In this document: positions 11,675-41,415 of the stretch, piece by piece
Layout: every line of letters begins with the position of its first letter
Position numbering within the stretch: the stretch's first letter is position 1
NCBI GenBank assembly: GCA_049303675.1
Contig: JBAQNJ010000001.1
Location: 821,443 to 885,442 of the forward strand
Direction of reading: 5' to 3'
From: Microgenomates group bacterium
GTDB taxonomy: Bacteria; Patescibacteriota; Microgenomatia; UBA12405
Length of the DNA stretch: 64,000 nucleotides
The notes under the pieces: model-generated
Database searches by the model: none
The model's input: only the letters and a program-made list of their open reading frames with translations
Told to the model about the DNA's origin: nothing
Made by a program: the position numbers and the translations under genes

Positions 11675-11785
11675 ATTATCAGTAATTATATCTTATAATG
11701 TTATAAAGTCAACAACAAACTAAGAAATAAATTTTAAAACCAAATATAACCTGTCCTAAGGACTTATTTTAAAATTTTTCTTAAG

Positions 11786-11856
11786 TTACCCTGCATGGAT
11801 TCGAACCACAATAAACAGCTCCAAAGGCTGTTGTCCTACCATTAGACGACAGGGTA
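11786..11856 (-). tRNA. tRNA-Gln (anticodon TTG)
   Basis: rc: TACCCTGTCGTCTAATGGTAGGACAACAGC-CTTTGGA-GCTGT...GGTTCGAATCCATGCAGGGTAA; U1:A72 as in many tRNA-Gln. Confidence 0.7.
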
Positions 11857-11860
11857 AAGG

Positions 11861-11942
11861 TGCCGACGAGAGGACTTGAACCTCCACACCTTGCGGCATA
11901 CGCACCTCAAGCGTACGTGTATACCAATTTCACCACGTCGGC
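11861..11942 (-). tRNA. tRNA-Leu (anticodon GAG)
   Basis: rc: GCCGACGTGGTGAAATTGGTATACACGTACGC-TTGAGGT-GCGTA + long variable arm + GGAGGTTCAAGTCCTCTCGTCGGCA. Confidence 0.8.
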
Positions 11943-11964
11943 AGATTGTTAAAAGAGCTCTATA

Positions 11965-12186
11965 TTATACATCCTTTCTCTCTCTACTTATCACCACCAA
12001 GTCACCTTCGCTAAGTTGGCCAGAGATGACACCTTTACCTCTCTCCATTTGAGCAAGGTCTGTTTTTTCAAATCTTTTTACAAGTGGTAACGGATCGCCG
12101 ACATTTGTATAACCTAGACTATATAAATAATCTCTCAAGGAAAATTTTCCGATACAATTATAGATAATTTTTGAATTTTCTATCAT
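11965..12186 (-). CDS. small hypothetical protein (~73 aa); paralog of 12341..12568
   Basis: ORF 11965..12279 truncated to the internal Met because its N-terminus is a translation of tRNA-Val; C-terminus '...GDLVVISRERKDV' is shared with the neighbouring paralog. Confidence 0.4.
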   Translation of the reverse strand: MIENSKIIYNCIGKFSLRDYLYSLGYTNVGDPLPLVKRFEKTDLAQMERGKGVISGQLSEGDLVVISRERKDV

Positions 12187-12188
12187 AG

Positions 12189-12261
12189 TGGCCGCTGAGG
12201 GACTCGAACCCCCGACCACCCCGATGTAAACGGGATGCTCTACCAACTGAGCTAAGCAGCC
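12189..12261 (-). tRNA. tRNA-Val (anticodon TAC)
   Basis: rc: GGCTGCTTAGCTCAGTTGGTAGAGCATCCCG-TTTACAT-CGGGG...GGGGGTTCGAGTCCCTCAGCGGCCA. Confidence 0.8.
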
Positions 12262-12340
12262 AAAGTGTGAAGTTGCCAACTGTGGGGTTTATCCCCAGTC
12301 CGAATGCTTTCGGACAGCTAAGCAGCCATGCTGCTGTATT

Positions 12341-12568
12341 TTACCAATCTTTATGTTCTCTGACTATTACCACCTGTCCTGCCTCAACGTGTTCAGGATA
12401 ATCAATTTTCTCTCTTCTCAAACCTGTAGCCCGCAATACATATGCCTCACCACTTTTAACATCCATAACTCCTACTCTCACAGAAAAATCCCCCAAACAC
12501 ACATCCAAAATTGCATCACACAAGCTTGATACCTTCATCTCTACGGCATTTGTTACACCCTTAATCAT
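12341..12568 (-). CDS. small hypothetical protein (75 aa); paralog of 11965..12186
   Basis: ORF; C-terminus '...AGQVVIVREHKDW' and ~60% nucleotide identity over the last ~40 nt with the neighbouring paralog. Confidence 0.4.
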   Translation of the reverse strand: MIKGVTNAVEMKVSSLCDAILDVCLGDFSVRVGVMDVKSGEAYVLRATGLRREKIDYPEHVEAGQVVIVREHKDW

Positions 12569-12571
12569 CTG

Positions 12572-12595
12572 AGCGAGAGACGGGACTCGAACCCG
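12572..12595 (-). pseudogene. tRNA-Gly 3' fragment (T-arm plus 3' acceptor), exact duplicate of the 3' end of tRNA-Gly(GCC) at 12866..12939
   Basis: rc 'CGGGTTCGAGTCCCGTCTCTCGCTC' identical to the 3' 25 nt of the intact gene; upstream sequence does not fold into D or anticodon arms. Confidence 0.55.
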
Positions 12596-12610
12596 TTGGC
12601 AGCCTGTCGC

Positions 12611-12862
12611 CTAAGGCGACTGCTCAACCAATTTAACTTTTAACCACTCACGACCCTTACCAGACTTTAAAGACTTTTCTCTTCTTAAGGCATCTATTCT
12701 CGTTGGCATATTTTCACCATAAATTAAATCAAATGGAAAAGTTAGTGAAGTATATTTGGATTTACCAGAATTATGTTCCGACATTCTTCTTTCAATATCG
12801 TTTGTCTGGCCTACATATAGTCGATTGTTTACCCGACTTTTAAGTACGTATACAGTAAACAT
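12611..12862 (-). CDS. GIY-YIG nuclease family protein (UPF0213/YhbQ-like)
   Basis: 'FTVYVLKSRVNNRLYVGQTNDIERRMSEHNSGKSKY' motif; paralog of 9479..9739. Confidence 0.75.
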   Translation of the reverse strand: MFTVYVLKSRVNNRLYVGQTNDIERRMSEHNSGKSKYTSLTFPFDLIYGENMPTRIDALRREKSLKSGKGREWLKVKLVEQSP

Positions 12863-12865
12863 TCT

Positions 12866-12939
12866 GAGCGAGAGACGGGACTCGAACCCGCAGCCTTCTC
12901 CTTGGCAAGGAGATGCTCAACCAATTGAGCTACTCTCGC
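12866..12939 (-). tRNA. tRNA-Gly (anticodon GCC)
   Basis: rc: GCGAGAGTAGCTCAATTGGTTGAGCATCTCC-TTGCCAA-GGAGA AGGCTGCGGGTTCGAGTCCCGTCTCTCGCT. Confidence 0.85.
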
Positions 12940-12943
12940 AATT

Positions 12944-12974
12944 CAGTTAACAGATTTCAGTTAACCGTTTACAG
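12944..12974. repeat. GTTAAC-core repeat, left flank of four-helix-bundle gene: CAGTTAACAG-ATTT-CAGTTAACCGTTTACAG
   Basis: read directly. Confidence 0.65.
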
Positions 12975-13344
12975 TTTTTAGCGACCTTATCAAACCGTAG
13001 AGTATTTTACCAGTTAAATCAGCCTGTGTTAATACCGGATTTACATCAAGTTTCGGATACAATTTATTAATAATTTTACATATTGCGACCACCTCAACCA
13101 GTGACTTTCTCGATATGCCCAAAAACTTAATGAAATCTCTTCTGCTGTCAGAAGCACTACCTTCAGCAATATTAATTGCCACCGATGTTGACGCTCTCCT
13201 GATCTGATCACCTAGACCATGCACTTCAAAACTAGGCAACAAAGTATGTAAAAGATATGAAAACTCTACTAACCTTACGGACTCTTCCCACACTTTTAAC
13301 TTTTCAAAATTCTGCATTTTCCTCTGTATACTGTTAACTGCCAT
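12961..13344 (-). CDS. four-helix-bundle protein (TIGR02436 / '23S rRNA intervening-sequence protein' family)
   Basis: 'LKVWEESVRL...LP..E.HGLGDQIRRASTSVAINIAEGS...FLGISRKSLVEV' family signature. Confidence 0.75.
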   Translation of the reverse strand: MAVNSIQRKMQNFEKLKVWEESVRLVEFSYLLHTLLPSFEVHGLGDQIRRASTSVAINIAEGSASDSRRDFIKFLGISRKSLVEVVAICKIINKLYPKLDVNPVLTQADLTGKILYGLIRSLKTVNG

Positions 13345-13359
13345 CCGTTAACTGTTTAG
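13331..13359. repeat. GTTAAC-core repeat, right flank of four-helix-bundle gene: CTGTTAACTG-CCATC-CGTTAACTGTTTAG (direct orientation relative to the left flank)
   Basis: read directly. Confidence 0.65.
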
Positions 13360-13432
13360 TGCCGAAAGTTGGACTCGAACCAACATCCCAGGTTTTTCAG
13401 ACCAGTGCCGTGACCATCTTGGCTATTTCGGC
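13360..13432 (-). tRNA. tRNA-Phe (anticodon GAA), copy 1
   Basis: rc: GCCGAAATAGCCAAGATGGTCACGGCACTGGT-CTGAAAA-ACCTG GGAT GTTGGTTCGAGTCCAACTTTCGGCA; anticodon stem has one U.U mismatch; 73/73 identical to the copy at 39464..39536. Confidence 0.65.
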
Positions 13433-13513
13433 TTAAGAAGTATTTGTATTATACAAAATAAAAATATTTTTGTTCTACTGTATTCTATCAACAGTTAACT
13501 GTTCGCTGTCGAG

Positions 13514-13595
13514 TGCCGTTGAGAGGACTTGAACCTCCACGCCTTGCGGCATACGCTTCTGAGACGTACGTGTATACCAATTTCACCACAACGGC
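13514..13595 (-). tRNA. tRNA-Leu (anticodon CAG)
   Basis: rc: GCCGTTGTGGTGAAATTGGTATACACGTACGT-CTCAGAA-GCGTA + long variable arm + GGAGGTTCAAGTCCTCTCAACGGCA. Confidence 0.8.
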
Positions 13596-13643
13596 AAATC
13601 AAGGTATTATCTCACGAAACAAATTCAGTTTTTATCTTTACAA

Positions 13644-14186
13644 CTATTTAATAACATCCTCAAACAGTTCTTTAGCGCTAAACACTAATGGCAATTTTAA
13701 AACCTCTTCACGAGTAAACCATTTTGCCTCAATTACTTTACTCTCAACATCATCTCTAGTTTCAGTTGTTTCAGATATAGTTTCAAAAAAGAAAATCACT
13801 CCATGATAATTATATTTTGGTGCAATTGCCTCTCTGAAGACTAAGAAACTTAGTTCCTTAGCCACAATTCCAGTTTCTTCCAATATCTCTCTTTTAGCCG
13901 CAATCTCCAGAGTTTCTCCAAATTCAACCTTACCTCCTGGTATTATCCAATAATCCTTGCCTCCTTCTAATGTTTCCCTAACTAACAAGAACTTGTTTTT
14001 ATTTCTTACCAACACGCCAACTATTACTTTTGGTTTCCTTTTTATCATTTCTAACTGAATCTTAGGCGGAATCGGCCGACAACTACACTCTCGGTTGTGA
14101 TCCGTATGCCACTGAATTCTCTCGTTCAAACTTGCCTTTTTAGGCATCTTGTTCTTCTGGTGCCACTCTTTATTTATCTTCGCCAT
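13644..14186 (-). CDS. NUDIX hydrolase with N-terminal Cys/His-containing extension
   Basis: Nudix box 'GGKVEFGETLEIAAKREILEETG'. Confidence 0.8.
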   Translation of the reverse strand: MAKINKEWHQKNKMPKKASLNERIQWHTDHNRECSCRPIPPKIQLEMIKRKPKVIVGVLVRNKNKFLLVRETLEGGKDYWIIPGGKVEFGETLEIAAKREILEETGIVAKELSFLVFREAIAPKYNYHGVIFFFETISETTETRDDVESKVIEAKWFTREEVLKLPLVFSAKELFEDVIK

Positions 14187-14218
14187 TATTTATTTTATAC
14201 CACTCTCTTTATCTCATC

Positions 14219-14292
14219 TGGAGCGGGATGGGGGAGTCGAACCCCCCATATCAGTTTGGAAAACTGAAGTTATACCGATTAACTAATCCCGC
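14219..14292 (-). tRNA. tRNA-Gly (anticodon TCC), CCA encoded
   Basis: rc: GCGGGATTAGTTAATCGGTATAACTTCAGT-TTTCCAA-ACTGA...GGGGGGTTCGACTCCCCCATCCCGCTCCA. Confidence 0.8.
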
Positions 14293-14382
14293 AACGTACA
14301 AATTACTTCATAATTTTACGTTGCAGAAACGTTAATTTGCAAAGCAAATTTTACGTTTCGCAAAATAAATTAAGGTGCAATC

Positions 14383-14442
14383 TAAGTCGGGCTATGCCTA
14401 GACTAAGTTCATAAGACATAGTCGGGCTACGCCTCGACAAAG
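14383..14442. repeat. two tandem ~24-bp direct repeats (TAAGTCGGGCTA[T/C]GCCT[A/C]GAC[T/A]AAG) between tRNA-Gly and tRNA-Pro
   Basis: read directly: 14383..14407 and 14419..14442. Confidence 0.6.
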
Positions 14443-14458
14443 CTCGTAGAGAGCGAAG

Positions 14459-14532
14459 TCGGGGATACTGGATTCGAACCAGCAACCTCACGGTCCCAAA
14501 CCGTGCGCGCTAGCCAATTGCGCCAATCCCCG
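14459..14532 (-). tRNA. tRNA-Pro (anticodon TGG)
   Basis: rc: CGGGGATTGGCGCAATTGGCTAGCGCGCACGG-TTTGGGA-CCGTG...GCTGGTTCGAATCCAGTATCCCCGA. Confidence 0.8.
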
Positions 14533-14557
14533 TTGCTCGTGTATTTTACACGAATTG

Positions 14558-14642
14558 TGCCGCCAGAGGGGATCGAACCCCCACGCTTGTTGAGAGCACA
14601 AGATTTTAAGTCTTGCGTGTATACCAATTTCACCATGGCGGC
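14558..14642 (-). tRNA. tRNA-Leu (anticodon TAA)
   Basis: rc: GCCGCCATGGTGAAATTGGTATACACGCAAGA-CTTAAAA-TCTTG + long variable arm + GGGGGTTCGATCCCCTCTGGCGGCA. Confidence 0.8.
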
Positions 14643-19553: not shown

Positions 19554-19593
19554 ACCAAATTATACTTATTACTGATAAAATACAGTTGATTTG

Positions 19594-19666
19594 TCCTCGT
19601 AGCTCAGTTGGATAGAGCGCTTCCCTTCTAAGGAAGAGGTCATTGGTTCGATCCCAATCGAGGATA
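19594..19666 (+). tRNA. tRNA-Arg (anticodon TCT)
   Basis: GTCCTCGTAGCTCAGTTGGATAGAGCGCTTCC-CTTCTAA-GGAAG AGGTC ATTGGTTCGATCCCAATCGAGGATA. Confidence 0.8.
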
Positions 19667-19667
19667 C

Positions 19668-19739
19668 TAAACAGTTGACAGATTACAGTTTACAGAAAAA
19701 ATCTCTGTTAACTGACAACTGTAGACTGTAAACTGATTA
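19668..19739. repeat. cluster of CAGTT[A/G]AC / ACAGTTTACAG / CTGTAAACTG words between the two tRNA-Arg genes (GTTAAC-core repeat family)
   Basis: read directly: 'aaacagttgacagattacagtttacagaaaaaatctctgttaactgacaactgtagactgtaaactg'. Confidence 0.6.
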
Positions 19740-19811
19740 GCGCCTATAGCTCAATGGATAGAGTACCAGTCTTCGGAACTGGTGATGAGGGTCCGATTCC
19801 CCCTGGGCGTA
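19740..19811 (+). tRNA. tRNA-Arg (anticodon TCG)
   Basis: GCGCCTATAGCTCAATGGATAGAGTACCAGT-CTTCGGA-ACTGG...; acceptor stem has two G.U pairs. Confidence 0.7.
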
Positions 19812-19833
19812 CATATTAATTACAAATTAAAAA

Positions 19834-19850
19834 TTACGAATTACGAATTG
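19834..19850. repeat. ATTACGAATTACGAATT motif (reverse complement of the AATTCGTAATTCG repeat seen at 47.03 and 52.07 kb)
   Basis: read directly. Confidence 0.6.
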
Positions 19851-19899
19851 TTAGGTGTTTTTTGTTGATTTGTAAATTATAATCAGTAATTAACAATTT

Positions 19900-19972
19900 G
19901 GGTCGTTAGCTCAGTCGGTAGAGCAATCGCCTCTTAAGCGATTGGTCGTGAGTTCGAGTCTCACACGACCCA
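19900..19972 (+). tRNA. tRNA-Lys (anticodon CTT)
   Basis: GGGTCGTTAGCTCAGTCGGTAGAGCAATCGC-CTCTTAA-GCGAT...GTGAGTTCGAGTCTCACACGACCCA; TATAAT ~18 nt upstream. Confidence 0.85.
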
Positions 19973-19987
19973 CTAGGTAATTTCATT

Positions 19988-20069
19988 GCCGCAGTGGTGA
20001 AATTGGTATACACGTACGCTTTAGGAGCGTATACCGCAAGGTGTGGAGGTTCAAGTCCTCTCTGCGGCA
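19988..20069 (+). tRNA. tRNA-Leu (anticodon TAG)
   Basis: GCCGCAGTGGTGAAATTGGTATACACGTACGC-TTTAGGA-GCGTA + long variable arm + GGAGGTTCAAGTCCTCTCTGCGGCA; followed by T-run. Confidence 0.8.
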
Positions 20070-20090
20070 CTTTTTTTGCTACACTATTTT

Positions 20091-30139: not shown

Positions 30140-31930
30140 ATGTCACAAAATGACGCCTTACAACACAATGACGACAATCTCTACAAAATCCGCCATAGCG
30201 CCGAGCATATCCTGACGGAGGCCATGCAGCGAGTTTTTGGCGCCGACAAGTTTTTTATGGCCATGGGGCCAGCCACCGATGATGGTTTTTATTTTGATTT
30301 CGAACCACTTGGCGATTTCAAAATTTCTGAAACAGATTTTCCGGCAATTGAAGCCGAAATGACTAAAATAGTCAAAGAAAATTTACCTATAGTTAGGTCC
30401 GAAATTAGTCTAGAAGAAGCCAAAAAAATGTTTGTCAATAATCCTTATAAAATGGAATGGCTCGAGTCAATTAAGGACCGCGATGAAGTTATTTCGATTT
30501 ATAAAACCGGCGACGAATTTGTCGATCTTTGTGCCGGCCCTCATGTCAATTACACCGCCAAAGTCAAGGCCTTTAAACTACTCTCTATCGCCGGTGCCTA
30601 TTGGCACGGCGATGAAAAAAACAAAATGCTCACCCGTATCTACGGCACCGCCTTTGAGAATAAAGAAGAGTTGGCCAAATTCGTCACCAATCTCGAAGAA
30701 GCCCACAAAAGAGACCATCGAAAATTGGGTAAAGAACTAGGTCTATTCACTTTTTCTGAATTAATTGGTAGTGGATTGCCACTTTATACTCCCAAAGGGG
30801 CTCTGATCAGGCTAGCTGTCAATAATTACGTCGAAGAAACCCAAAAAAAACAAGGTTATACTCAAGTTTGGACACCTCAAATAGCCAAGGCTAAGCTGTT
30901 TCAAGTCTCTGGTCACTATGACAAATACAAAGACAGCATGTTTAGAGTGGTCAGCAACTATTCCGATGAAGAATTTTTTCTCAAGCCAATGAATTGTCCC
31001 CAGCATACCCAAATATATGCCTCAGAGGCCCATAGCTATCGTGATTTACCACTTCGCTTTGCCGATTTTGCCATGCTATATCGAGATGAAAAACCTGGGG
31101 AATTAAATGGCCTAGCTCGAGTCCGTGCCTTTTCCCAAGACGACTGTCATATTTTTTGTCGTGAAGATCAAGTCGACGCCGAAATTGATATGGCTCTACA
31201 AATGACCAAAGAAATTATGGGGACTTTTGGACTCAAGTATAAATATCGCCTGTCCACCCGCGATCCCTCTCATCCTGAAAAATATTTAGGTGACCCAAAA
31301 ATTTGGGATAAGGTAGAAAAATGGGCTGTCGATATTATGAAGCGCAATCATATTGAATATTTTGATGGCCCAGGTGAAGCCGCTTTCTATGCTCCCAAAA
31401 TGGACTTAATCGCCACCGATGCTCTTGGTCGAGAATGGCAATTATCTACAGTTCAAATCGATTATGTCATGCCCGAAAGATTTGGTCTAGAATACACCGC
31501 TGCCGATGGCACCAAGCAGCGTCCTATCATGCTCCACCGAGCTATCGTTGGCTCACCCGAGCGTTTTATGATGATCATGATTGAACATTTCGCTGGTGCA
31601 TTTCCAGTTTGGCTATCCCCAGTCCAAGCTAAAATTATTCCTATTACCGATGCCCAGCATGGGTATGCACGGACTGTCGAAGCAGAATTAAGAGCAAGCA
31701 ACATTAGGGTAGAAATTGACGATCGCTCCGAAAAAATGCAGGCCAAAATTCGCGATGCCCAGATGCAAAAGATTCCCTTTATGCTGGTTATTGGTGGCCG
31801 CGAAGCCGACTCTGACTCTGTGGCTGTCCGTCAACGCGACGGCCAAGACCTCGGCGCTGTCAAAGTTGATCAATTTTTATCCCAAATTAAGGATTTAATT
31901 AACACAAAGTCTCTTAATCTGATAAAATAA
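30140..31930 (+). CDS. thrS: threonyl-tRNA synthetase
   Basis: class II aaRS core, 'HRKLGKELGLF', C-terminal anticodon-binding domain; 596 aa (no N-terminal TGS domain). Confidence 0.9.
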   Translation: MSQNDALQHNDDNLYKIRHSAEHILTEAMQRVFGADKFFMAMGPATDDGFYFDFEPLGDFKISETDFPAIEAEMTKIVKENLPIVRSEISLEEAKKMFVNNPYKMEWLESIKDRDEVISIYKTGDEFVDLCAGPHVNYTAKVKAFKLLSIAGAYWHGDEKNKMLTRIYGTAFENKEELAKFVTNLEEAHKRDHRKLGKELGLFTFSELIGSGLPLYTPKGALIRLAVNNYVEETQKKQGYTQVWTPQIAKAKLFQVSGHYDKYKDSMFRVVSNYSDEEFFLKPMNCPQHTQIYASEAHSYRDLPLRFADFAMLYRDEKPGELNGLARVRAFSQDDCHIFCREDQVDAEIDMALQMTKEIMGTFGLKYKYRLSTRDPSHPEKYLGDPKIWDKVEKWAVDIMKRNHIEYFDGPGEAAFYAPKMDLIATDALGREWQLSTVQIDYVMPERFGLEYTAADGTKQRPIMLHRAIVGSPERFMMIMIEHFAGAFPVWLSPVQAKIIPITDAQHGYARTVEAELRASNIRVEIDDRSEKMQAKIRDAQMQKIPFMLVIGGREADSDSVAVRQRDGQDLGAVKVDQFLSQIKDLINTKSLNLIK

Positions 31931-32737: not shown

Positions 32738-33079
32738 ATGCGCGTTAAAACTGGAATAGTCCGTCACCAACATCACAAAAAAGTCCTAGAGGCAGCCAAG
32801 GGTTTTTGGATGACTCGTCACAAGAGATACAAGGTAGCTCACCAAGCAGTCATGCATTCTGGCAATTACGCCTACGAAGGTCGACGTATTCGCCGTCGTG
32901 ATATGCGTCGATTGTGGATTGTCCGTCTCAACGCTGCTCTCAAGCCATTTGAAGTCCGCTACTCCACTTTCATTAATTTAATGAAAACCAAAAAAGTTGA
33001 TCTCAATCGTAAAATGCTCACCGAGATTGCTATCCAATATCCTGATACTTTCAAATCCATCGTCGCCTTTATAAAATAG
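32738..33079 (+). CDS. rplT: 50S ribosomal protein L20
   Basis: 'MRVKTGIVRHQHHKKVLEAAKGFW...RRDMRRLWIVRLNAA' L20 signature. Confidence 0.9.
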   Translation: MRVKTGIVRHQHHKKVLEAAKGFWMTRHKRYKVAHQAVMHSGNYAYEGRRIRRRDMRRLWIVRLNAALKPFEVRYSTFINLMKTKKVDLNRKMLTEIAIQYPDTFKSIVAFIK

Positions 33080-33104: not shown

Positions 33105-33139
33105 AAGCTCTCCGATAGCTATCGGAGAGCTTTTGTTTT
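33105..33139 (+). terminator. rho-independent terminator (perfect 12-bp-stem hairpin AAGCTCTCCGATAGCTATCGGAGAGCTT + TTTGTTTT) abutting the pheS-fragment ATG
   Basis: read directly; no SD sequence between the hairpin and the ATG at 33140. Confidence 0.65.
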
Positions 33140-33640
33140 ATGCAACTAGAAGAAATAAAAAAAGAAATAGAAAAATGTTCAACGGCAGCTGATTTGGAAA
33201 ATATTCGTATAAAATATCTAGGTAGAACTGGTCTAATTAATGCCGAATTTTCCAAAATAAAGTCTGCCCCAGACCATAAACTTTTTGGTATAGAGTTAAA
33301 TGAATTAAAAAAATCAGTTGAAGAATTAATCGAAACAAAAAATTCTTCCCTTGGTCACGAAATAAAATCAATCAAAAAAAATATATCAGTAGCTTCAATA
33401 AAAAAAATCGGACATTTACATCCTTTAACAATAACTGAGCGTCAACTCAACGAAGTTTTCCGCAAACTAGGCTTCTCCATCTACAATTCTCCTGAGATTG
33501 TCACTGATGAGTACAATTTTGAGCGCCTGAATGTCCCCAAAAATTACCCTGCCCGTGACATGAAAGAGATTGGACCCATTACAATTATCAAAGTTGAAAT
33601 AGCAGATAATATCTCGACAATATTTTACGAATTAAAATAA
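33140..33640 (+). pseudogene. pheS: phenylalanyl-tRNA synthetase alpha subunit, N-terminal 141 codons only (homology ends after 'NYPARDM' at ~33563; tail is unrelated)
   Basis: 'LENIRIKYLGRTGLIN' and 'GHLHPLTITERQLNEVFRKLGFSIYNSPEIVTDEYNFERLNVPKNYPARDM' align to PheS residues ~25-155; the catalytic core and pheT are absent from the window. Confidence 0.7.
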
Positions 33641-35183: not shown

Positions 35184-35250
35184 TTCTTCTGCTTGACACC
35201 TAAGTATCGAGTATGTATCATTACCAGCAAATAAGAAAATTACCAAGTTT

Positions 35251-36333
35251 ATGTCACATAATTGCCGAGAATATAAAATTAGACCAGCCGAACCAAGTGA
35301 TGCACCCGAACTAGTTGAACTAGTTAAAAATGGTATGCCAGGCTATCCATTTGAATCTGTATATCGTGAACAATCAGTCAAAGAATCCATTGAAAGTCCA
35401 ACCTCATATAGAGTAATTGCTGAAAGAAAGGGCAAAGTTGTCGGAACCGCAGTCCTAGGTGAAACTGGTGAGTACCAACAAGAAATCAAAAGGGTTGTAG
35501 TCTCACCAACTGAGCGAGGCAATGGTCTCGCTAGCACCATGACCAAACACCTAGCCGATAAGGCCACTGCAGCAGGTATCGTCCCATGGCTAGATGCTAG
35601 AACCAGAGAACCCGCCATGCAGCAAGCTGGTCTAAGCGCTGGTATGCATGCCATGTCTCTCGAAAAAGGCAAACATCTAGTTTATAACCATTTAGATAGT
35701 CAAGGACAAGAAGTTGGCCCAGCTCGGGAAACTATGGTAAACGAAACATTACTAACAAAAGACCCTCAAGAATTGACTGGTGGACTAAAAAGATGGGGTC
35801 ATAATTTATTAAAAACTCTAGCGGCAAACATGGAAGATTCATTTTCTCCTCCACCCAAAGATGTAAGTATTGTAAATAAAGAAATACCTAGTGCTAGAGA
35901 AGTTAAGGAAAAAATTGAGAGAGGGATTAGAAACCTGTCACCAAGCACCGTTCAAAGGACTTCAAACCCCGACATCGTTATCCTCTCAGAACACCAAACA
36001 TCTATGGTAGTAGTCACGCCGGATGCATCAGCATTTGTTTTGACCAAACCAAACGTCGGACTAAAGAAGATGGTCGAAACAGGTGAAAAAATTGGACTAC
36101 AAACCATCACCGCATATATTGATATTGGTGATATTAAATCACAACGACATTTACGAGACGCAGATATGTCTCCAACTATGGTTCGCTTAAATCAAAACAA
36201 AAGGTGTGAACCTATAACCTATCAAGTAGGTTGGAGAAAAACGGCCAATAGCTTTAACCAGTGTGTCGACGAAATCAAAGTTGCCCCTGAAGCAGAACGT
36301 CAAATTCGAGACATCATCAAAAGAATTCCGTAA
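35251..36333 (+). CDS. GNAT-family N-acetyltransferase domain protein with ~200-aa C-terminal extension of unknown function
   Basis: 'IRPAEPSDAPELVELVK...VVGTAVLGE...VVVSPTERGNGLASTMTKHLADKA' GNAT motifs A/B. Confidence 0.6.
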   Translation: MSHNCREYKIRPAEPSDAPELVELVKNGMPGYPFESVYREQSVKESIESPTSYRVIAERKGKVVGTAVLGETGEYQQEIKRVVVSPTERGNGLASTMTKHLADKATAAGIVPWLDARTREPAMQQAGLSAGMHAMSLEKGKHLVYNHLDSQGQEVGPARETMVNETLLTKDPQELTGGLKRWGHNLLKTLAANMEDSFSPPPKDVSIVNKEIPSAREVKEKIERGIRNLSPSTVQRTSNPDIVILSEHQTSMVVVTPDASAFVLTKPNVGLKKMVETGEKIGLQTITAYIDIGDIKSQRHLRDADMSPTMVRLNQNKRCEPITYQVGWRKTANSFNQCVDEIKVAPEAERQIRDIIKRIP

Positions 36334-36348
36334 GTATATAATTAGACA

Positions 36349-37425
36349 ATGAAAAACGAATTGTTGAAAATATTAACCAAGCTTGTCAGCTTCCAAACAA
36401 CCAACGACCAGCCAGAAAATATTACCAAATGCTTTGACTATATAGATAGCCAGTTATCTTTTTATCCCTTCGCCAAAAAAATATATATCCAAAATGGGGT
36501 AGAATCACGTGTCTGGAGTACAAAAAAATCCCTAAACACGGAATATATTCTAAATGCTCATATTGATGTAGTACCTGCAGATCAAAAACTTTTTAAGCTC
36601 CACCTTCAACAAGACAAACTAAATGGCAGGGGAGTGTCCGACATGAAATTCTCGATTGCCTCCTACATTTGTATTTTAAAAGATATCTATACTGCTACAA
36701 AGAAGCTACCGTCCATTGCCCTTATGTTGACTTCAGACGAAGAGCTTGGTGGCTATAACGGTGTCAACTACTTGGTTAATCAAATTGGATATAGTGCCTC
36801 TGTCGTTATGGTACCCGATGGTGGAGAGAATAACAAAATAGTTGAAAACGCCAAGGGTGTGTTGCATTTACAAATTAGTTCCACTGGTATTCCCGCCCAC
36901 GCTGCCAGACTTTGGGAAGGGGAATCTGCAATTGAAAAATTAGCTCAGGCTATTGTCAATTTACGAAAAATATATCCTTATCCGTCAAAATCTGTTTGGA
37001 AAAACACCCTAAATATAGGTAAAATACAAGGTGGCACTCAAACTAATCAAGTTCCGGATTCAGCTTTTATGTATCTCGACATCCGCTATCTCCCCACTAC
37101 CAACACTGATATTGTAGTAAAAAAAATAGCCAATGCCTGCCCCAATTGTCAAGTTAAAACAATTATTAATGGTGAGGCTTTTCATATAGACAAAAACAAT
37201 AAATATATTAGCAGGTGGGCCAAGTTAATTTCAAATGGCAAACAGGTTTATATTAATGAAAACATAGCTTCAGATGGTCGATACTTCTCTGCCAAAAACA
37301 TTCCGGTAATTGTTTCCAAACCAATTGGTGGACTAATTCACCACCATGATGAATGGACTAGCCTATCTTCCCTCATGGAATTTACTAACAATCTGAAAAA
37401 ATTTTTGACAAATGACACTGACTAG
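36349..37425 (+). CDS. M20-family metallopeptidase/deacylase (ArgE/DapE/CPG2-like)
   Basis: 'LNAHIDVVP', 'GRGVSDMKFSIA', 'LMLTSDEELGG' metal-binding motifs. Confidence 0.7.
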   Translation: MKNELLKILTKLVSFQTTNDQPENITKCFDYIDSQLSFYPFAKKIYIQNGVESRVWSTKKSLNTEYILNAHIDVVPADQKLFKLHLQQDKLNGRGVSDMKFSIASYICILKDIYTATKKLPSIALMLTSDEELGGYNGVNYLVNQIGYSASVVMVPDGGENNKIVENAKGVLHLQISSTGIPAHAARLWEGESAIEKLAQAIVNLRKIYPYPSKSVWKNTLNIGKIQGGTQTNQVPDSAFMYLDIRYLPTTNTDIVVKKIANACPNCQVKTIINGEAFHIDKNNKYISRWAKLISNGKQVYINENIASDGRYFSAKNIPVIVSKPIGGLIHHHDEWTSLSSLMEFTNNLKKFLTNDTD

Positions 37426-37744
37426 ACTAAAAGGAATTGGTATTGGCAACTCAAAAGGGAGTGGCCGAGTTTTAATCATTAGTTCACATCAGGATTTTGC
37501 CAAAGTCAAGGGTAATGAGGTCCTCGTGGTCCAAAATGCCACACCCGATTTCATTGTAATTCTCAAAAAAGTAAAATGTCTTATCACCGATCAAGGCGGA
37601 GCCACTTCTCATATCGCCATTGTTTGTCGTGAGTTGTCCATACATGCCATTATTGCCACCGGCCTAGCCACAGCCAAATTCCATAATAACGATGAAATTT
37701 ACTTTGATACAACAAAAGGAACTGTCACCAGATATGATCCATAA
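37412..37744 (+). CDS. stand-alone PEP-utilizing-enzyme mobile (phosphohistidine swivel) domain protein
   Basis: 'LITDQGGATSHIAIVCRELSIHAIIATG' matches the swivel His motif (compare 'GGQTSHAAIVSRELGVPCVVG' in ppsA of this window); 110 aa. Confidence 0.65.
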   Translation: MTLTRLKGIGIGNSKGSGRVLIISSHQDFAKVKGNEVLVVQNATPDFIVILKKVKCLITDQGGATSHIAIVCRELSIHAIIATGLATAKFHNNDEIYFDTTKGTVTRYDP

Positions 37745-38483
37745 ATCACTTCAACTACTCCATAAAACATTAATTAGTTATCCGTCAATCGTCACTAATT
37801 ACTTTGACAAGTGGGGGATCAGGCCAGAGAACTTGATCACCCGTCTTTCCGACACCAATTTTCATGGAGGCATTGAATCAAAGATTATTTCAATCCACAA
37901 CCTCCCCTCAAAAAAATATTCCACTACATTAGACATAGGTCCAGAAACGGGGATAGAAATATTTCTACTTTCAGAGATATCTGCCCATCTTCAAGTAGCC
38001 GACCCAGATGAAGACAATTTAATTCTATTAAAATCTATTACCGACAAGGCCCTTCCAATTTATTCAAAAAATATCAAATATATCCCCTGTGGACTAGATA
38101 ACAGCCATACCTATCTAGCAGAAAATTCATACTATACCCAACTAAAAAAAATACAAAAAAATTCAATTCCTACGTTTTACCATCTCACTTCCACCTCAGA
38201 ACTGGCCAATCTAGATTCAAAATTTGACCTAATCTATATCCACAAAATTATATCCACTATTAGTCGTTCACAAAAAACCCCAGCCAACTCAATATTTCAT
38301 AAATCACTTGACACGCTTTTTACTAAACTAAATAAAAAAGGCATTATTTCTTGGACTGAGCCAAAATTCTTCTGGGATCAACAAAAATTGACTATACCTG
38401 ATAAATATAAGACAAAAGTTATAGACTATCAACTCTCCAACACAGCTGACAATTATCGACAACTATTAATAACTCATGATTAA
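37734..38483 (+). CDS. hypothetical protein, possible class I SAM-methyltransferase-like
   Basis: start trimmed to Met15 to reduce overlap; 'TLDIGPETGIEIFLLSE' loosely resembles MTase motif I; weak. Confidence 0.3.
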   Translation: MIHKSLQLLHKTLISYPSIVTNYFDKWGIRPENLITRLSDTNFHGGIESKIISIHNLPSKKYSTTLDIGPETGIEIFLLSEISAHLQVADPDEDNLILLKSITDKALPIYSKNIKYIPCGLDNSHTYLAENSYYTQLKKIQKNSIPTFYHLTSTSELANLDSKFDLIYIHKIISTISRSQKTPANSIFHKSLDTLFTKLNKKGIISWTEPKFFWDQQKLTIPDKYKTKVIDYQLSNTADNYRQLLITHD

Positions 38484-39444
38484 CCCCCGCTTAAATCCCT
38501 GGAACATTTATGGAAATTTTTCCAATCCAGACCCATCCATTACCGCCAACGTATATGCCAATGGTCATGAATGGTACAACTCTTACATGCCACCTTTTTT
38601 TTTGCTAAAAGACAAGCAACAAATCGCCAACATCAGAAAGAAACTTGATAAAGAATATATACAATATATATCAACAATATTTTCACCAAAAAATAGACTA
38701 AAAACAATCAAATTGCAATATTACCGAATCAAAAAATTTTTTAGCTTATCGAAAAAATTGATTCCAGAATTTGAGAAAATCGACGATCTCCAAAAACTGA
38801 ATCAACTACTTTATAAGTCAATCAATCTGATGCAGACATACCTAAACCCACTAGAGGCCATTGTCACCGGTAAACGTTCTTTATACAACCCGATTCCTCA
38901 TATTTTTAAAAACCAACATACCCAAATTGAATCACTAAAAAAATCACCCTCCTTAGAAACAATTTTTATTCCCATGTCAATAATTTTCACACACCGAAAA
39001 ACATTTTCAATTGAATATAAAAAAGTATTCAAGTATCTTACCTCCACTTTATTTTGTACCTCCAGAGATCTTCAGTTTGCCTTTAAATATGTTGAGAAGA
39101 CCTATCACTATAGTCACTTTATGGAATTATTTGACGCCCAACATGTTGTCAAACAAAATTATCACAAAATATTACACCTATCAGAACTCACACCTACCCA
39201 AGAATTTGTACACCATCTTCAGACAATCAGTGGTATTTTAACATGGTCAAAATATATCCCGATATCATACAAACCACTCCACTTTCGCTATTTTTGTGAA
39301 ATAGAAACATATTCAATTCTCTTAAATACACCCGAGGTAAAAGCATCAGAATTTCTCAAAAAAGAACTGTCGATCAAATCAAACTCAGGCTCAGAAAAGT
39401 TTGCCAAAACTATTTTTGCATTTAAATATTTTAACCATTTCTAA
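38476..39444 (+). CDS. hypothetical protein (322 aa)
   Basis: ORF overlapping the upstream stop; no motif recognised. Confidence 0.35.
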   Translation: MINPRLNPWNIYGNFSNPDPSITANVYANGHEWYNSYMPPFFLLKDKQQIANIRKKLDKEYIQYISTIFSPKNRLKTIKLQYYRIKKFFSLSKKLIPEFEKIDDLQKLNQLLYKSINLMQTYLNPLEAIVTGKRSLYNPIPHIFKNQHTQIESLKKSPSLETIFIPMSIIFTHRKTFSIEYKKVFKYLTSTLFCTSRDLQFAFKYVEKTYHYSHFMELFDAQHVVKQNYHKILHLSELTPTQEFVHHLQTISGILTWSKYIPISYKPLHFRYFCEIETYSILLNTPEVKASEFLKKELSIKSNSGSEKFAKTIFAFKYFNHF

Positions 39445-39463: not shown

Positions 39464-39536
39464 GCCGAAATAGCCAAGATGGTCACGGCACTGGTCTGAA
39501 AAACCTGGGATGTTGGTTCGAGTCCAACTTTCGGCA
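39464..39536 (+). tRNA. tRNA-Phe (anticodon GAA), copy 2 (73/73 identical to 13360..13432)
   Basis: GCCGAAATAGCCAAGATGGTCACGGCACTGGTCTGAAAAACCTGGGATGTTGGTTCGAGTCCAACTTTCGGCA. Confidence 0.65.
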
Positions 39537-39685
39537 CTAGATGTCTGTTCTTTGCGGTACACTCCTTTTTCTTATTTCTATCATCGTTGTCTCTATTTTT
39601 TTTTGATATTCTACCAGTTTATAACTCCCGTCTTTAATCCACGGTAGAAGATTATCTTTTTTTGTTTCATTTTTTGTAGTCATAC

Positions 39686-39834: not shown

Positions 39835-41415
39835 TCAACCCGTCCGCGCTTCGATGGCATCAAAAATTAGTTTTTCCAAATTATCCACAGCGTCGTCCAA
39901 TATACCGTCAGTTGTCCATGGATTCATAATACAGGCTCTCCATGTCCACAATTTTCTCTCCTTAGTATCTGTTTCATCAAGTAAATCAGTTTCGGAAAAA
40001 TAATAACCACCTGGATTCTGAAAATCATTATCTAAAACATGCCTTGTTTTTGTAATGAAGCAGTGAAATGCTTCACTGTGTCCGTCTAAGTTTAATTTAG
40101 CCAAAACATCATCCCTCAGGGTAAAACATAATAAATTTAGTTCTGGGTCATGAAATGGACGTAAATATGTTGACTCCTTCAGCCTTGCATGAAGATGATT
40201 TATTCTATCAAGTGCCATATCAAAACTAGTTTGGAGTCCTTCCCTTCCCAAAGTATCCATCATCGCTTTGACTACCAATATTCCTCCAGCCCCTCCCGAT
40301 CCTTCAATTCTTTTAGAGCCTAATCCAGCCGTCCCTTCAATTAAAGATTTTGCGATCCTAGGCCTATCTTTTTCAAATTCTTCGGATTTATCAGCCATAT
40401 TTATCCCAATATAATTAGCTTTCACCCCTTTGGCTAATCCTGCATGTTTCCTCGCATCTTTGAAGCAGACGGCCCCACTACTTCCATTATATGGACCATA
40501 CAAGTTTTTGTGGACATCAAATACAACCGCATCATATTCTGGCAAGCCATCAAATTTATCACCAACCCTAGATAGTCTATACGGTGCACCATAGGCAGCA
40601 TCTCCAATCGTAAAGATTTCATTTTCACAAGCAATTCTATTTATCTCAACCCCGTCATCAACCAGCCCAGTTTCCGTTTCTCCCATGATTCCGATAATCG
40701 CCATTACAGGAATTCCCTTTGATTCCGCCTCACGAATTTTGTTTCTAAGATCATCTAGCGACATCTTTAAACCACATGTTTTTAATGTTTGTATTTTTAT
40801 ATTGTGATTTGGTCCACCCAATAAATCCACTGCCTTCGGAATAGAGTAATGGGCCATATCAGTAGTTAGCACCCAAACTTCATCAGGAAATCTTGTTCCA
40901 GCTTGTTCATACTTGGCTTCCATTTCTTTTCGAGCAACTGCAAGAGCAGTGAAATTGGCCATAGTCCCACCAGAACAAAATGTACCACTAGCTTTTTCCT
41001 TATCATAACCAATAATATCTAAGATATGTCCCATCGATTGATGTTCCAAACGTGTTTCTACCATACTCACCTCAGGCGCTACTGTGTTTGAACCTAATTC
41101 TGTCGACAGCAAATTTGCTACCAGTGCCGGAATAGGTACCTCAGTCAACATATGGCCCAAATAATTACTTGTAAACCTCCTAGCTCCTGACATTTGAACA
41201 AAACTATCGTTCATACCAGCCATCAGCTCCAAATTATTTTCCGAACCTTCGGCCAACAACTCTTTCAATAGTTTCTCTGCCAGAAACTCTCTATCCTCCT
41301 GTTGATTAGCAAAAGCCGCCAAAACTCTGCTTACCTCAACCTCCGAGTGATCAGTAGAAGTTGGTCTTTCTTTTATTGCTTTTGTCATAAAAAAAAGCCC
41401 CGCATAGCGGGGCAA
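39835..41415 (-). CDS. PLP-dependent group II decarboxylase (glutamate/tyrosine/aspartate decarboxylase-like)
   Basis: 'FCSGGTMANFTALAVARK', PLP-Lys 'FDVHKNLYG'; 526 aa. Confidence 0.75.
   Translation of the reverse strand: MPRYAGLFFMTKAIKERPTSTDHSEVEVSRVLAAFANQQEDREFLAEKLLKELLAEGSENNLELMAGMNDSFVQMSGARRFTSNYLGHMLTEVPIPALVANLLSTELGSNTVAPEVSMVETRLEHQSMGHILDIIGYDKEKASGTFCSGGTMANFTALAVARKEMEAKYEQAGTRFPDEVWVLTTDMAHYSIPKAVDLLGGPNHNIKIQTLKTCGLKMSLDDLRNKIREAESKGIPVMAIIGIMGETETGLVDDGVEINRIACENEIFTIGDAAYGAPYRLSRVGDKFDGLPEYDAVVFDVHKNLYGPYNGSSGAVCFKDARKHAGLAKGVKANYIGINMADKSEEFEKDRPRIAKSLIEGTAGLGSKRIEGSGGAGGILVVKAMMDTLGREGLQTSFDMALDRINHLHARLKESTYLRPFHDPELNLLCFTLRDDVLAKLNLDGHSEAFHCFITKTRHVLDNDFQNPGGYYFSETDLLDETDTKERKLWTWRACIMNPWTTDGILDDAVDNLEKLIFDAIEARTG

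Follow-up and report, generated by a model that had tools for sequence, protein, structure and literature searches.

A conserved GNAT–M20 gene pair of Microgenomates bacteria and its association with the thrS–pheST region

A stretch of 64,000 nucleotides from a Microgenomates group bacterium (contig JBAQNJ010000001.1, positions 821,443–885,442; hereafter the window) was analysed around two adjacent genes that together make up exactly the span 35251–37425. These open reading frames (ORFs) of 360 and 358 amino acids encode a GNAT-type acyltransferase with a long C-terminal extension, here termed GNATx, and a metal-dependent amidohydrolase of the M20 family. An earlier reading, made from the sequence only, had placed a GNAT and an M20 deacylase at this site next to a P-loop kinase–dehydrogenase fusion, and Pfam and NCBIfam models confirmed all three assignments. 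The GNATx and M20 genes form a conserved two-gene module of the Microgenomates, a group within the candidate phyla radiation (CPR), in which both genes are intact and adjacent.

The GNATx protein and its M20 partner

GNATx matches the Pfam Acetyltransf_1 model (PF00583) with 39.8 bits against a gathering score of 20.7, over residues 37–117 only. It has the alpha/beta fold of the GNATs, and its N-domain carries a coenzyme A (CoA) pyrophosphate motif (R89-G-N-G-L-A) in which R89 is invariant in 33 sequences; GNATx is predicted from these motifs to be an acyl-CoA-dependent N-acyltransferase. Residues from about 168 to 360 gave no match in Pfam, NCBIfam or PDB profile searches, and the same searches returned nothing that would make this region a Fem-type transferase, an MshD-type or other known domain. 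The sequence-only reading had described an extension of about 200 amino acids of unknown function, which is borne out by the lack of any Pfam or NCBIfam model here, and had proposed remote homology and structure prediction as a check. The predicted structure (pLDDT, predicted local distance difference test, 94.8) suggests that the extension of about 190 amino acids consists of a helical linker and a degenerate GNAT-like fold, an answer given only by the fold search and by none of the sequence searches.

This putative pseudo-GNAT domain was previously unannotated. Many charged residues are invariant in both domains of GNATx; D258, S260, F262, T287, Y289 and R329 are among the invariant positions of the C-domain, and no conserved counterpart of the CoA motif was found in the C-domain. 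Internal duplication was considered and was undetectable by hhalign, which gave a probability of 0.5% for the N-domain against the C-domain. Known tandem-GNAT enzymes, which GNATx may resemble in architecture, are the mycothiol synthase MshD (1ozp), VipF (6wqb), clavulanate ORF14 (2wpw) and MAB_4324 (7q3a). By analogy with them, the degenerate C-terminal domain probably contributes to the acceptor pocket or to contacts between the subunits of an oligomer. Matches to the GNAT fold do not separate substrates, as polyamine, amino-acid and aminoglycoside acetyltransferases score equally.

GNATx belongs to a small, sharply bounded family that is restricted to Microgenomates-type CPR bacteria. A search of 5.8 billion proteins returned 34 matches of 326–422 amino acids (query coverage 81–100%, E no weaker than 1e-44), and when 1.84 billion cluster representatives were scanned exhaustively with HMMER, about 33 full-length two-domain representatives were found. 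At least 11 of 185,579 species-representative genomes carry GNATx, a lower bound because the scan was pattern-based; the informative labels among them are Woese-, Roizman-, Shapiro- and Amesbacteria or 'Microgenomates group'. Nothing relevant on a Microgenomates GNAT with an M20 was found in the literature. Some loci (L013, L017, L019 and L020) combine GNATx with a typical CPR gene order in metagenome-assembled genomes labelled 'uncultured Gammaproteobacteria' or 'Pseudomonadales'; these labels probably stem from taxonomic mislabelling or faulty binning.

The nearest matches outside this family were single-domain GNATs of 216–326 amino acids that align with the N-domain only (E 1e-24 to 1e-11) and share the signature motifs FPxYP(Y/F), AEIxQVVV, VRTRxPGMQKA, VYH and RExM. 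The best NCBIfam model was AblB (TIGR03827) for GNATx (31.4 bits) and for 10 of 10 short relatives tested (40–66 bits), against a curated cut-off of 205.1. The amino-acid N-acetyltransferases NAGS and ArsN were among the next matches, rimI fell below AblB in every case, and the MshD model TIGR03448 gave 22 bits against 163.1; all matches to named families, of GNATx and of the short relatives, are far below curated cut-offs. As judged by sequence, no other named group is as close to the catalytic domain as the acetyltransferases of free amino acids, a placement that does not identify its substrate. An archaeal short-form relative of this domain (L023:8001-9289) is encoded among Spt4, Rpb7 and eRF1; it has no M20 neighbour, the next gene instead encoding a V4R-domain protein, and a metagenome scan with it gave no matches.

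AblB (YodP), the best-scoring named family for the catalytic domain, is the beta-lysine N-epsilon-acetyltransferase, which acetylates the amine of a free amino acid in the documented AblA/AblB chemistry (PMC9049628). The architectures differ, as the extra domain of GNATx is C-terminal whereas the extra region of the AblB model is N-terminal. Neither lysine 2,3-aminomutase (AblA/KamA) nor any radical-SAM or aminomutase family appears in the gene table of any locus. In Bacillus subtilis, YodP presumably adjoins the M20-type YodQ in the kamA operon.

The partner ORF matches both Pfam domains of its family well above their gathering scores (Peptidase_M20, 78.3 bits against 24.6; M20_dimer, 65.1 bits against 21). 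The NCBIfam model that fits it best, for the ArgE/DapE subfamily (TIGR01910), gives 156.7 bits and so stays short of its cut-off of 217.6. Every equivalog score was well below its cut-off (TIGR01246, 96.4 against 361.8; TIGR01892, 89.5 against 297.7; NF001747, 62.4 against 288), and the protein is therefore not an orthologue of DapE, ArgE or LysK. The closest solved structure is an uncharacterised M20 protein (2rb7, E 2e-35), with DapE structures at E 1e-12 to 1e-14. Residues H71, D73, D98, E131, E132, H184 and H331 are invariant in 18 GNAT-adjacent M20 proteins (17 from other long-form loci and the window's own); the invariance of these metal ligands and catalytic residues points to an intact di-metal hydrolase. 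Its motifs predict hydrolysis of an N-acyl-amine or peptide-like bond. Features in common with ArgA/ArgE and with DapE are the M20 fold, its dimerisation domain, the full set of metal-binding and catalytic residues, and weak NAGS matches of the GNAT; the pair differs from them in the sub-threshold equivalog scores and in a conserved module that has no kinase and reductase steps.

Conservation and genomic context of the pair

Gene context was read in 17 other independent long-form GNATx loci, one short-form locus and two loci with homologues of the fusion, all annotated against the proteins of the window. An M20 gene lies beside GNATx in 17/17 other long-form loci, and beside its short relative in the short-form locus, all of them from Microgenomates-type CPR bacteria. 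In 16 of the 17 long-form loci it is directly downstream, and in 15 of these the two genes either overlap, by up to 11 nt, or are at most 41 nt apart; a 156-aa ORF intervenes in L015, and in L004/L005 a HEPN/nucleotidyltransferase pair sits between GNATx and the downstream M20 gene, with another M20 gene directly upstream. M20 genes flank GNATx on both sides in L022, the upstream one being a C-terminal fragment (L022:2-370). Start and stop codons of the two genes overlap in many loci, which suggests coupled expression, and GNATx and M20 are probably co-transcribed and co-translated. The region L004/L005:8700-14212 holds three M20 paralogues, one upstream and two downstream of GNATx, and its HEPN/nucleotidyltransferase pair is toxin–antitoxin-like.

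The commonest gene order is thrS-infC-rpmI-rplT-GNATx-M20-pheS-pheT, followed by a class A penicillin-binding protein (PBP) gene on the minus strand and then recG. Two other placements occur: upstream of thrS in Amesbacteria (L014, L021) and, in the Shapirobacteria locus L011, downstream of pheT. With the window's own locus included, the pair lies in or beside the thrS...pheT operon in 12 of the 16 informative long-form loci, in three arrangements. It is also kept together in four loci away from the ribosomal genes (L004/5, L015, L016 and L019). The pairing recurs in the sister group. The short single-domain relative P0187, with 35% identity to the GNATx N-domain, is directly followed by an M20 protein of the same subfamily (30–35% identity to the GNATx partners), and this pair stands upstream of thrS-infC-rpmI-rplT-pheS-pheT.

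The recurrence of the pair with thrS and pheST in three gene orders speaks for a CPR-specific, translation-linked role, in which GNATx would N-acetylate mischarged or non-cognate aminoacyl species, a damaged amino acid or a toxic Phe/Thr analogue, and the M20 protein would recycle the N-acetyl-amino acid. Action on the amino-acid or aminoacyl-tRNA pool of ThrRS and PheRS would explain the repeated re-association with these genes; in the window itself a pheS fragment and an extra tRNA-Phe gene lie near the pair. Detoxification of amino-acid analogues or acetylation of aminoacyl-tRNA is an activity of known GNATs, namely PAT/ArsN, MddA and TacT/AtaT. Against such a role, GNATx has no similarity to TacT/AtaT-type toxins, no antitoxin-like gene accompanies it, PADLOC returned no match, no tRNA-binding feature was identified, and four loci are unlinked to thrS and pheST; we consider it a slim possibility. 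Neither a GNAT toxin–antitoxin pair of the TacT/AtaT type (with an RHH/DUF1778 antitoxin) nor a defence system found support, as the partner gene encodes an M20 protein and PADLOC gave nothing.

A class A PBP gene (Transgly and Transpeptidase domains) lies within a few kb of the pair in most loci, and DapE models are the best equivalog-type matches of the M20 protein. Both observations would fit a cell-wall role, with the pair supplying or recycling a diamino acid (meso-diaminopimelate (DAP) or lysine) or other component of the peptidoglycan stem peptide: GNATx would replace an acyltransferase of the DapH/DapD type, and the M20 protein would be an N-acyl-DAP deacylase (DapE/DapL-like). We regard this as improbable. 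The DapE/ArgE scores are far below cut-off (for example, 96 bits against 362 for TIGR01246), DapE structures match at E 1e-12 to 1e-14 compared with 2e-35 for the uncharacterised M20 protein, and neither dapA, dapB, dapF nor an aminotransferase gene occurs in any locus gene table; proximity to the PBP gene is explained by conserved pheT–PBP1 synteny.

No third gene conserved across the GNATx–M20 loci was found. A GCS2-like ligase was tried as a candidate and was present in L015 and L019 only. In these two loci, both unlinked to thrS, proteins of about 590 amino acids that match GCS2 (glutamate–cysteine ligase family 2) and are 50% identical to each other are encoded just upstream of GNATx (L015:8007-9773, L019:7097-8890).

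The sequence-only reading had treated the pair as part of a set of six genes, and had put forward co-occurrence across genomes as the check. When the proteins of the island were compared by BLAST with the ORFs of 23 loci, only GNATx and M20 recurred; the fusion, the phosphoenolpyruvate (PEP)-utilizer protein, two ORFans, the decarboxylase and a 114-aa ORF were in none of the other loci compared, and the six-gene set as a conserved unit was rejected. Just past the PBP gene of one locus (L006:18706-20840) there is a 355-aa unannotated protein with an 'ERGNG' GNAT-like motif, followed by another M20 gene. This protein was examined as a hidden GNATx paralogue and discarded, as hhalign against the GNATx family was not significant (probability 8.8%).

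A proposed acylation and deacylation pair

We hold, with about even confidence, that GNATx and its M20 partner are an N-acetylation/N-deacylation pair for a small amine, probably an amino acid. GNATx would N-acylate a small primary amine with an acyl-CoA donor; the probable acceptors are amino acids, among them diamino acids and damaged or non-cognate ones, and its pseudo-GNAT domain would contribute to acceptor binding. The M20 protein would strip the N-acyl group from the same class of compound, and enzymes encoded at other sites would have to perform any conversion in between. Salvage or detoxification would be the role of the pair, with co-expression as part of the thrS-infC-rpmI-rplT-pheST translation operon. 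The substrate class, the common compound for both enzymes and the physiological role are what we infer here.

A precedent for this logic is the salvage of S-(2-succino)cysteine in B. subtilis by ScmL/ScmK/ScmP (YxeL/K/P), described as 'acetylation, breakdown, deacetylation' (PMC9706529, PMC12757645). The likeness lies in an acetyltransferase and a metal-dependent N-acetyl-amino-acid deacetylase in one cluster, where the Scm pair brackets a transformation step. The GNATx–M20 module differs in that it has no conserved monooxygenase, lyase or transporter, the sequences are not close and there is no thiol-related context.

Several points weigh against the proposed acylation and deacylation pair. 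A transferase and a hydrolase acting on the same bond without an intervening enzyme would constitute a futile cycle, and the loci share no further gene. Matches to characterised families are far below cut-offs (AblB, 31 against 205 bits; ArgE/DapE, 157 against 218). M20 paralogues are numerous in L004/L005 (three) and in L022, and the M20 protein could be a general peptidase. Gene order in CPR bacteria is strongly conserved, and both the adjacency of the pair and its position in the operon could be inherited rather than functional.

An alternative is that GNATx and M20 are functionally independent housekeeping genes, adjacent only through conserved operon order. GNATx could then be a Rim-like N-terminal acetyltransferase whose second domain docks its protein substrate, a ribosomal protein or another protein of translation, and the M20 protein a general di/tripeptidase or aminoacylase that feeds amino acids to the auxotrophic CPR cell. 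We find this rather unlikely, as the AblB- and NAGS-type models outscore rimI for GNATx and for 10/10 short relatives, the structural matches of the GNAT do not discriminate substrates, the pair is intact in the four loci away from ribosomal genes (L004/5, L015, L016, L019), and the many start/stop overlaps suggest coupled expression.

The GNATx–M20 module presents known GNAT/M20 chemistry in a new architecture that is restricted to the Microgenomates. Many of the genes conserved in the tiny genomes of CPR bacteria have no assigned role, and here the Microgenomates keep a two-gene enzyme module inside one of the most conserved translation operons of bacteria. With two soluble enzymes and high-confidence models, the pair is a well-defined target for biochemistry, and could reveal amino-acid salvage or detoxification in auxotrophic, host-dependent cells.

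The fusion gene and the rearranged locus

The features around the pair are listed in Table 1. In this genome the six genes of the apparent island are a tightly packed run on one strand. A promoter-like site lies within the 67-nt gap between the fusion gene and GNATx, and a transcription start of their own for GNATx and M20 is possible from this pattern match.

Table 1. Features mapped around the GNATx–M20 pair (positions within the window)
Feature	Position	Strand	Remarks
thrS	30140-31930		Start of the mapped gene order, followed by infC and rpmI
rplT	32738-33079		After thrS, infC and rpmI
Intrinsic-terminator-like hairpin	33105-33132	+	Strong; 12-bp stem then T-run; directly after rplT
pheS 5' fragment, 166 aa	33140-33640	+	Pfam/NCBIfam and PheS similarity
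HprK-like P-loop/LDH-MDH-type dehydrogenase fusion, 493 aa	33702-35183	+	Neighbour outside the conserved module
Promoter-like site, TTGACA-17-TATCAT	35193-35221	+	Consensus scan, 11/12 matches; pattern match only
GNATx, two-domain acyltransferase, 360 aa	35251-36333	+	Pfam and structure prediction
GNATx canonical GNAT domain, residues 1 to about 167	35251-35751	+	
GNATx four-helix linker and degenerate GNAT-like alpha/beta domain, residues about 168-360	35752-36333	+	
M20A di-metal amidohydrolase (ArgE/DapE/CPG2-like, with dimerisation domain)	36349-37425	+	Conserved partner of GNATx
Stand-alone PEP-utilizer mobile (phospho-His) domain protein, 110 aa	37412-37744	+	Outside the conserved module
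ORFan, 263 aa (u263)	37692-38483	+	Outside the conserved module
ORFan, 322 aa (u322)	38476-39444	+	Outside the conserved module
tRNA-Phe(GAA), second copy	39464-39537	+	Downstream edge of the lineage-specific genes
Group II PLP (pyridoxal phosphate)-dependent decarboxylase	39835-41415	-	

The fusion protein matches Ldh_1_N with 38.2 bits against a gathering score of 27 (residues 198–334). Two further matches were below their gathering scores: Hpr_kinase_C with 24.3 bits against 33.3 (residues 47–100), and Semialdhyde_dh with 20.2 bits against 26, which reflects the Rossmann fold only. Its family is rare: 5.8 billion proteins contained 12 homologues, and those with a label come from CPR bacteria. 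Invariant in the family are the Walker A motif (G63...G68-K69) and the catalytic set of lactate/malate dehydrogenases (LDH/MDH): R285, equivalent to Arg109, N317-P-V-D320, D356, R359 and H375. The solved relatives are L-lactate, malate and 2-hydroxyisocaproate dehydrogenases. By these residues and relatives the protein is a 2-hydroxyacid dehydrogenase with an HprK-type domain and lies outside the enzyme families known for carboxylate phosphorylation or acyl-phosphate reduction; its role may be that of a fermentative dehydrogenase, either regulated or bifunctional. The HprK-like/LDH fusion family appears to be undescribed so far. The two homologues whose contexts were read (L009:10001-11500 and L010:10001-11518) are in unrelated settings, one adjoining an alanine racemase and an EamA transporter and the other a PPDK_N protein and an HD protein, and neither locus has a homologue of GNATx or M20.

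The sequence-only reading had proposed a four-step pathway of N-acylation, phosphorylation, reduction and deacylation in the manner of ArgA-ArgB-ArgC-ArgE, to which LysX-Z-Y-K is a further analogue. In favour of such a pathway, the GNAT, fusion and M20 genes share a strand within 3.7 kb, the GNAT is most like amino-acid N-acetyltransferases and the M20 protein is ArgE/DapE-like. The acylating and deacylating ends of this proposal survive as a real and conserved GNAT–M20 pair, but the phosphorylating and reducing steps do not. The fusion is absent from 17/17 other long-form loci and from the short-form locus, and the two of its homologues whose contexts were read have neither GNAT nor M20 beside them. 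Its P-loop domain is HprK-like and not that of an amino-acid kinase; its dehydrogenase keeps the LDH/MDH residues, and the sub-threshold Semialdhyde_dh match does not make it a Cys-dependent semialdehyde dehydrogenase. The promoter-like site further separates the fusion gene from GNATx, and the fusion gene is AT-rich, unlike GNATx. Such a pathway is therefore very improbable; the fusion is an unrelated, lineage-specific neighbour of the GNATx–M20 module, and the idea of a new four-step arginine-like pathway at this locus is removed.

As the sequence-only reading had noted, the GNATx gene is GC-richer than its neighbours (0.417 versus 0.32–0.37). It has 0.445 in the part that encodes the N-domain, as compared with 0.353 for the fusion gene, 0.371 for M20, 0.340 for u263, 0.322 for u322 and 0.319 for the pheS fragment. 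The GNATx gene nevertheless matches thrS, rplT and PBP1 in GC content (about 0.43) and is close to the mean of the window (0.399), and its third-codon-position GC (0.296) is not raised; it is therefore the neighbours that are AT-rich, and GNATx is not foreign-looking.

The pheS fragment matches PheS residues 11–157 and diverges after '...PARDM', near 33563. As no other pheS or pheT sequence was found in the window, these essential genes must be elsewhere or the assembly was joined at the fragment. The slot after M20 that holds pheS-pheT in relatives is occupied here by the PEP-utilizer gene, the two ORFans and the second tRNA-Phe gene. The start of the PEP-utilizer gene overlaps the M20 stop by 14 nt, and its product has an intact GGATSH phospho-His motif; the two overlapping AT-rich ORFans gave no match in Pfam, NCBIfam, PHROG, PADLOC or PDB. 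A recent local rearrangement or replacement around an ancestral rplT-GNATx-M20-pheS-pheT arrangement is the best reading of the apparent six-gene island. The pheS fragment marks this event; the fusion, the PEP-utilizer gene and both ORFans are additions to the locus peculiar to this genome, and they accompany the removal of pheS-pheT from the site. An assembly join may instead underlie the arrangement.

The two tRNA-Phe(GAA) genes, at 13359-13432 on the minus strand and at the position in Table 1, are 100% identical over about 76 nt and have unrelated flanks. A mobile island integrated at tRNA-Phe was considered but gained no support from these flanks, nor from direct repeats on either side, which did not go beyond chance-level 16-27-mers. 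A defence or phage origin had no support: PADLOC gave no match, and the matches in PHROGs were limited to generic acetyltransferases, M20-like proteins and kinases. A duplicated tRNA gene is unusual for a genome of about 1 Mb, and the second copy is exactly at the pheS-pheT position of relatives. Beyond the decarboxylase gene, a 114-aa ORF and the class A PBP gene follow, both on the minus strand, and finally recG. The best match of the decarboxylase is a PanP-type aspartate 1-decarboxylase (154 bits against a cut-off of 606), and near its gene there is a minus-strand terminator-like hairpin (39715-39690). Elsewhere in the window, tRNA genes are densely clustered at 11785-14642 (10 genes) and 19593-20070 (4 genes), and GC skew is negative in every 1-kb bin, with a cumulative value of -13.8.

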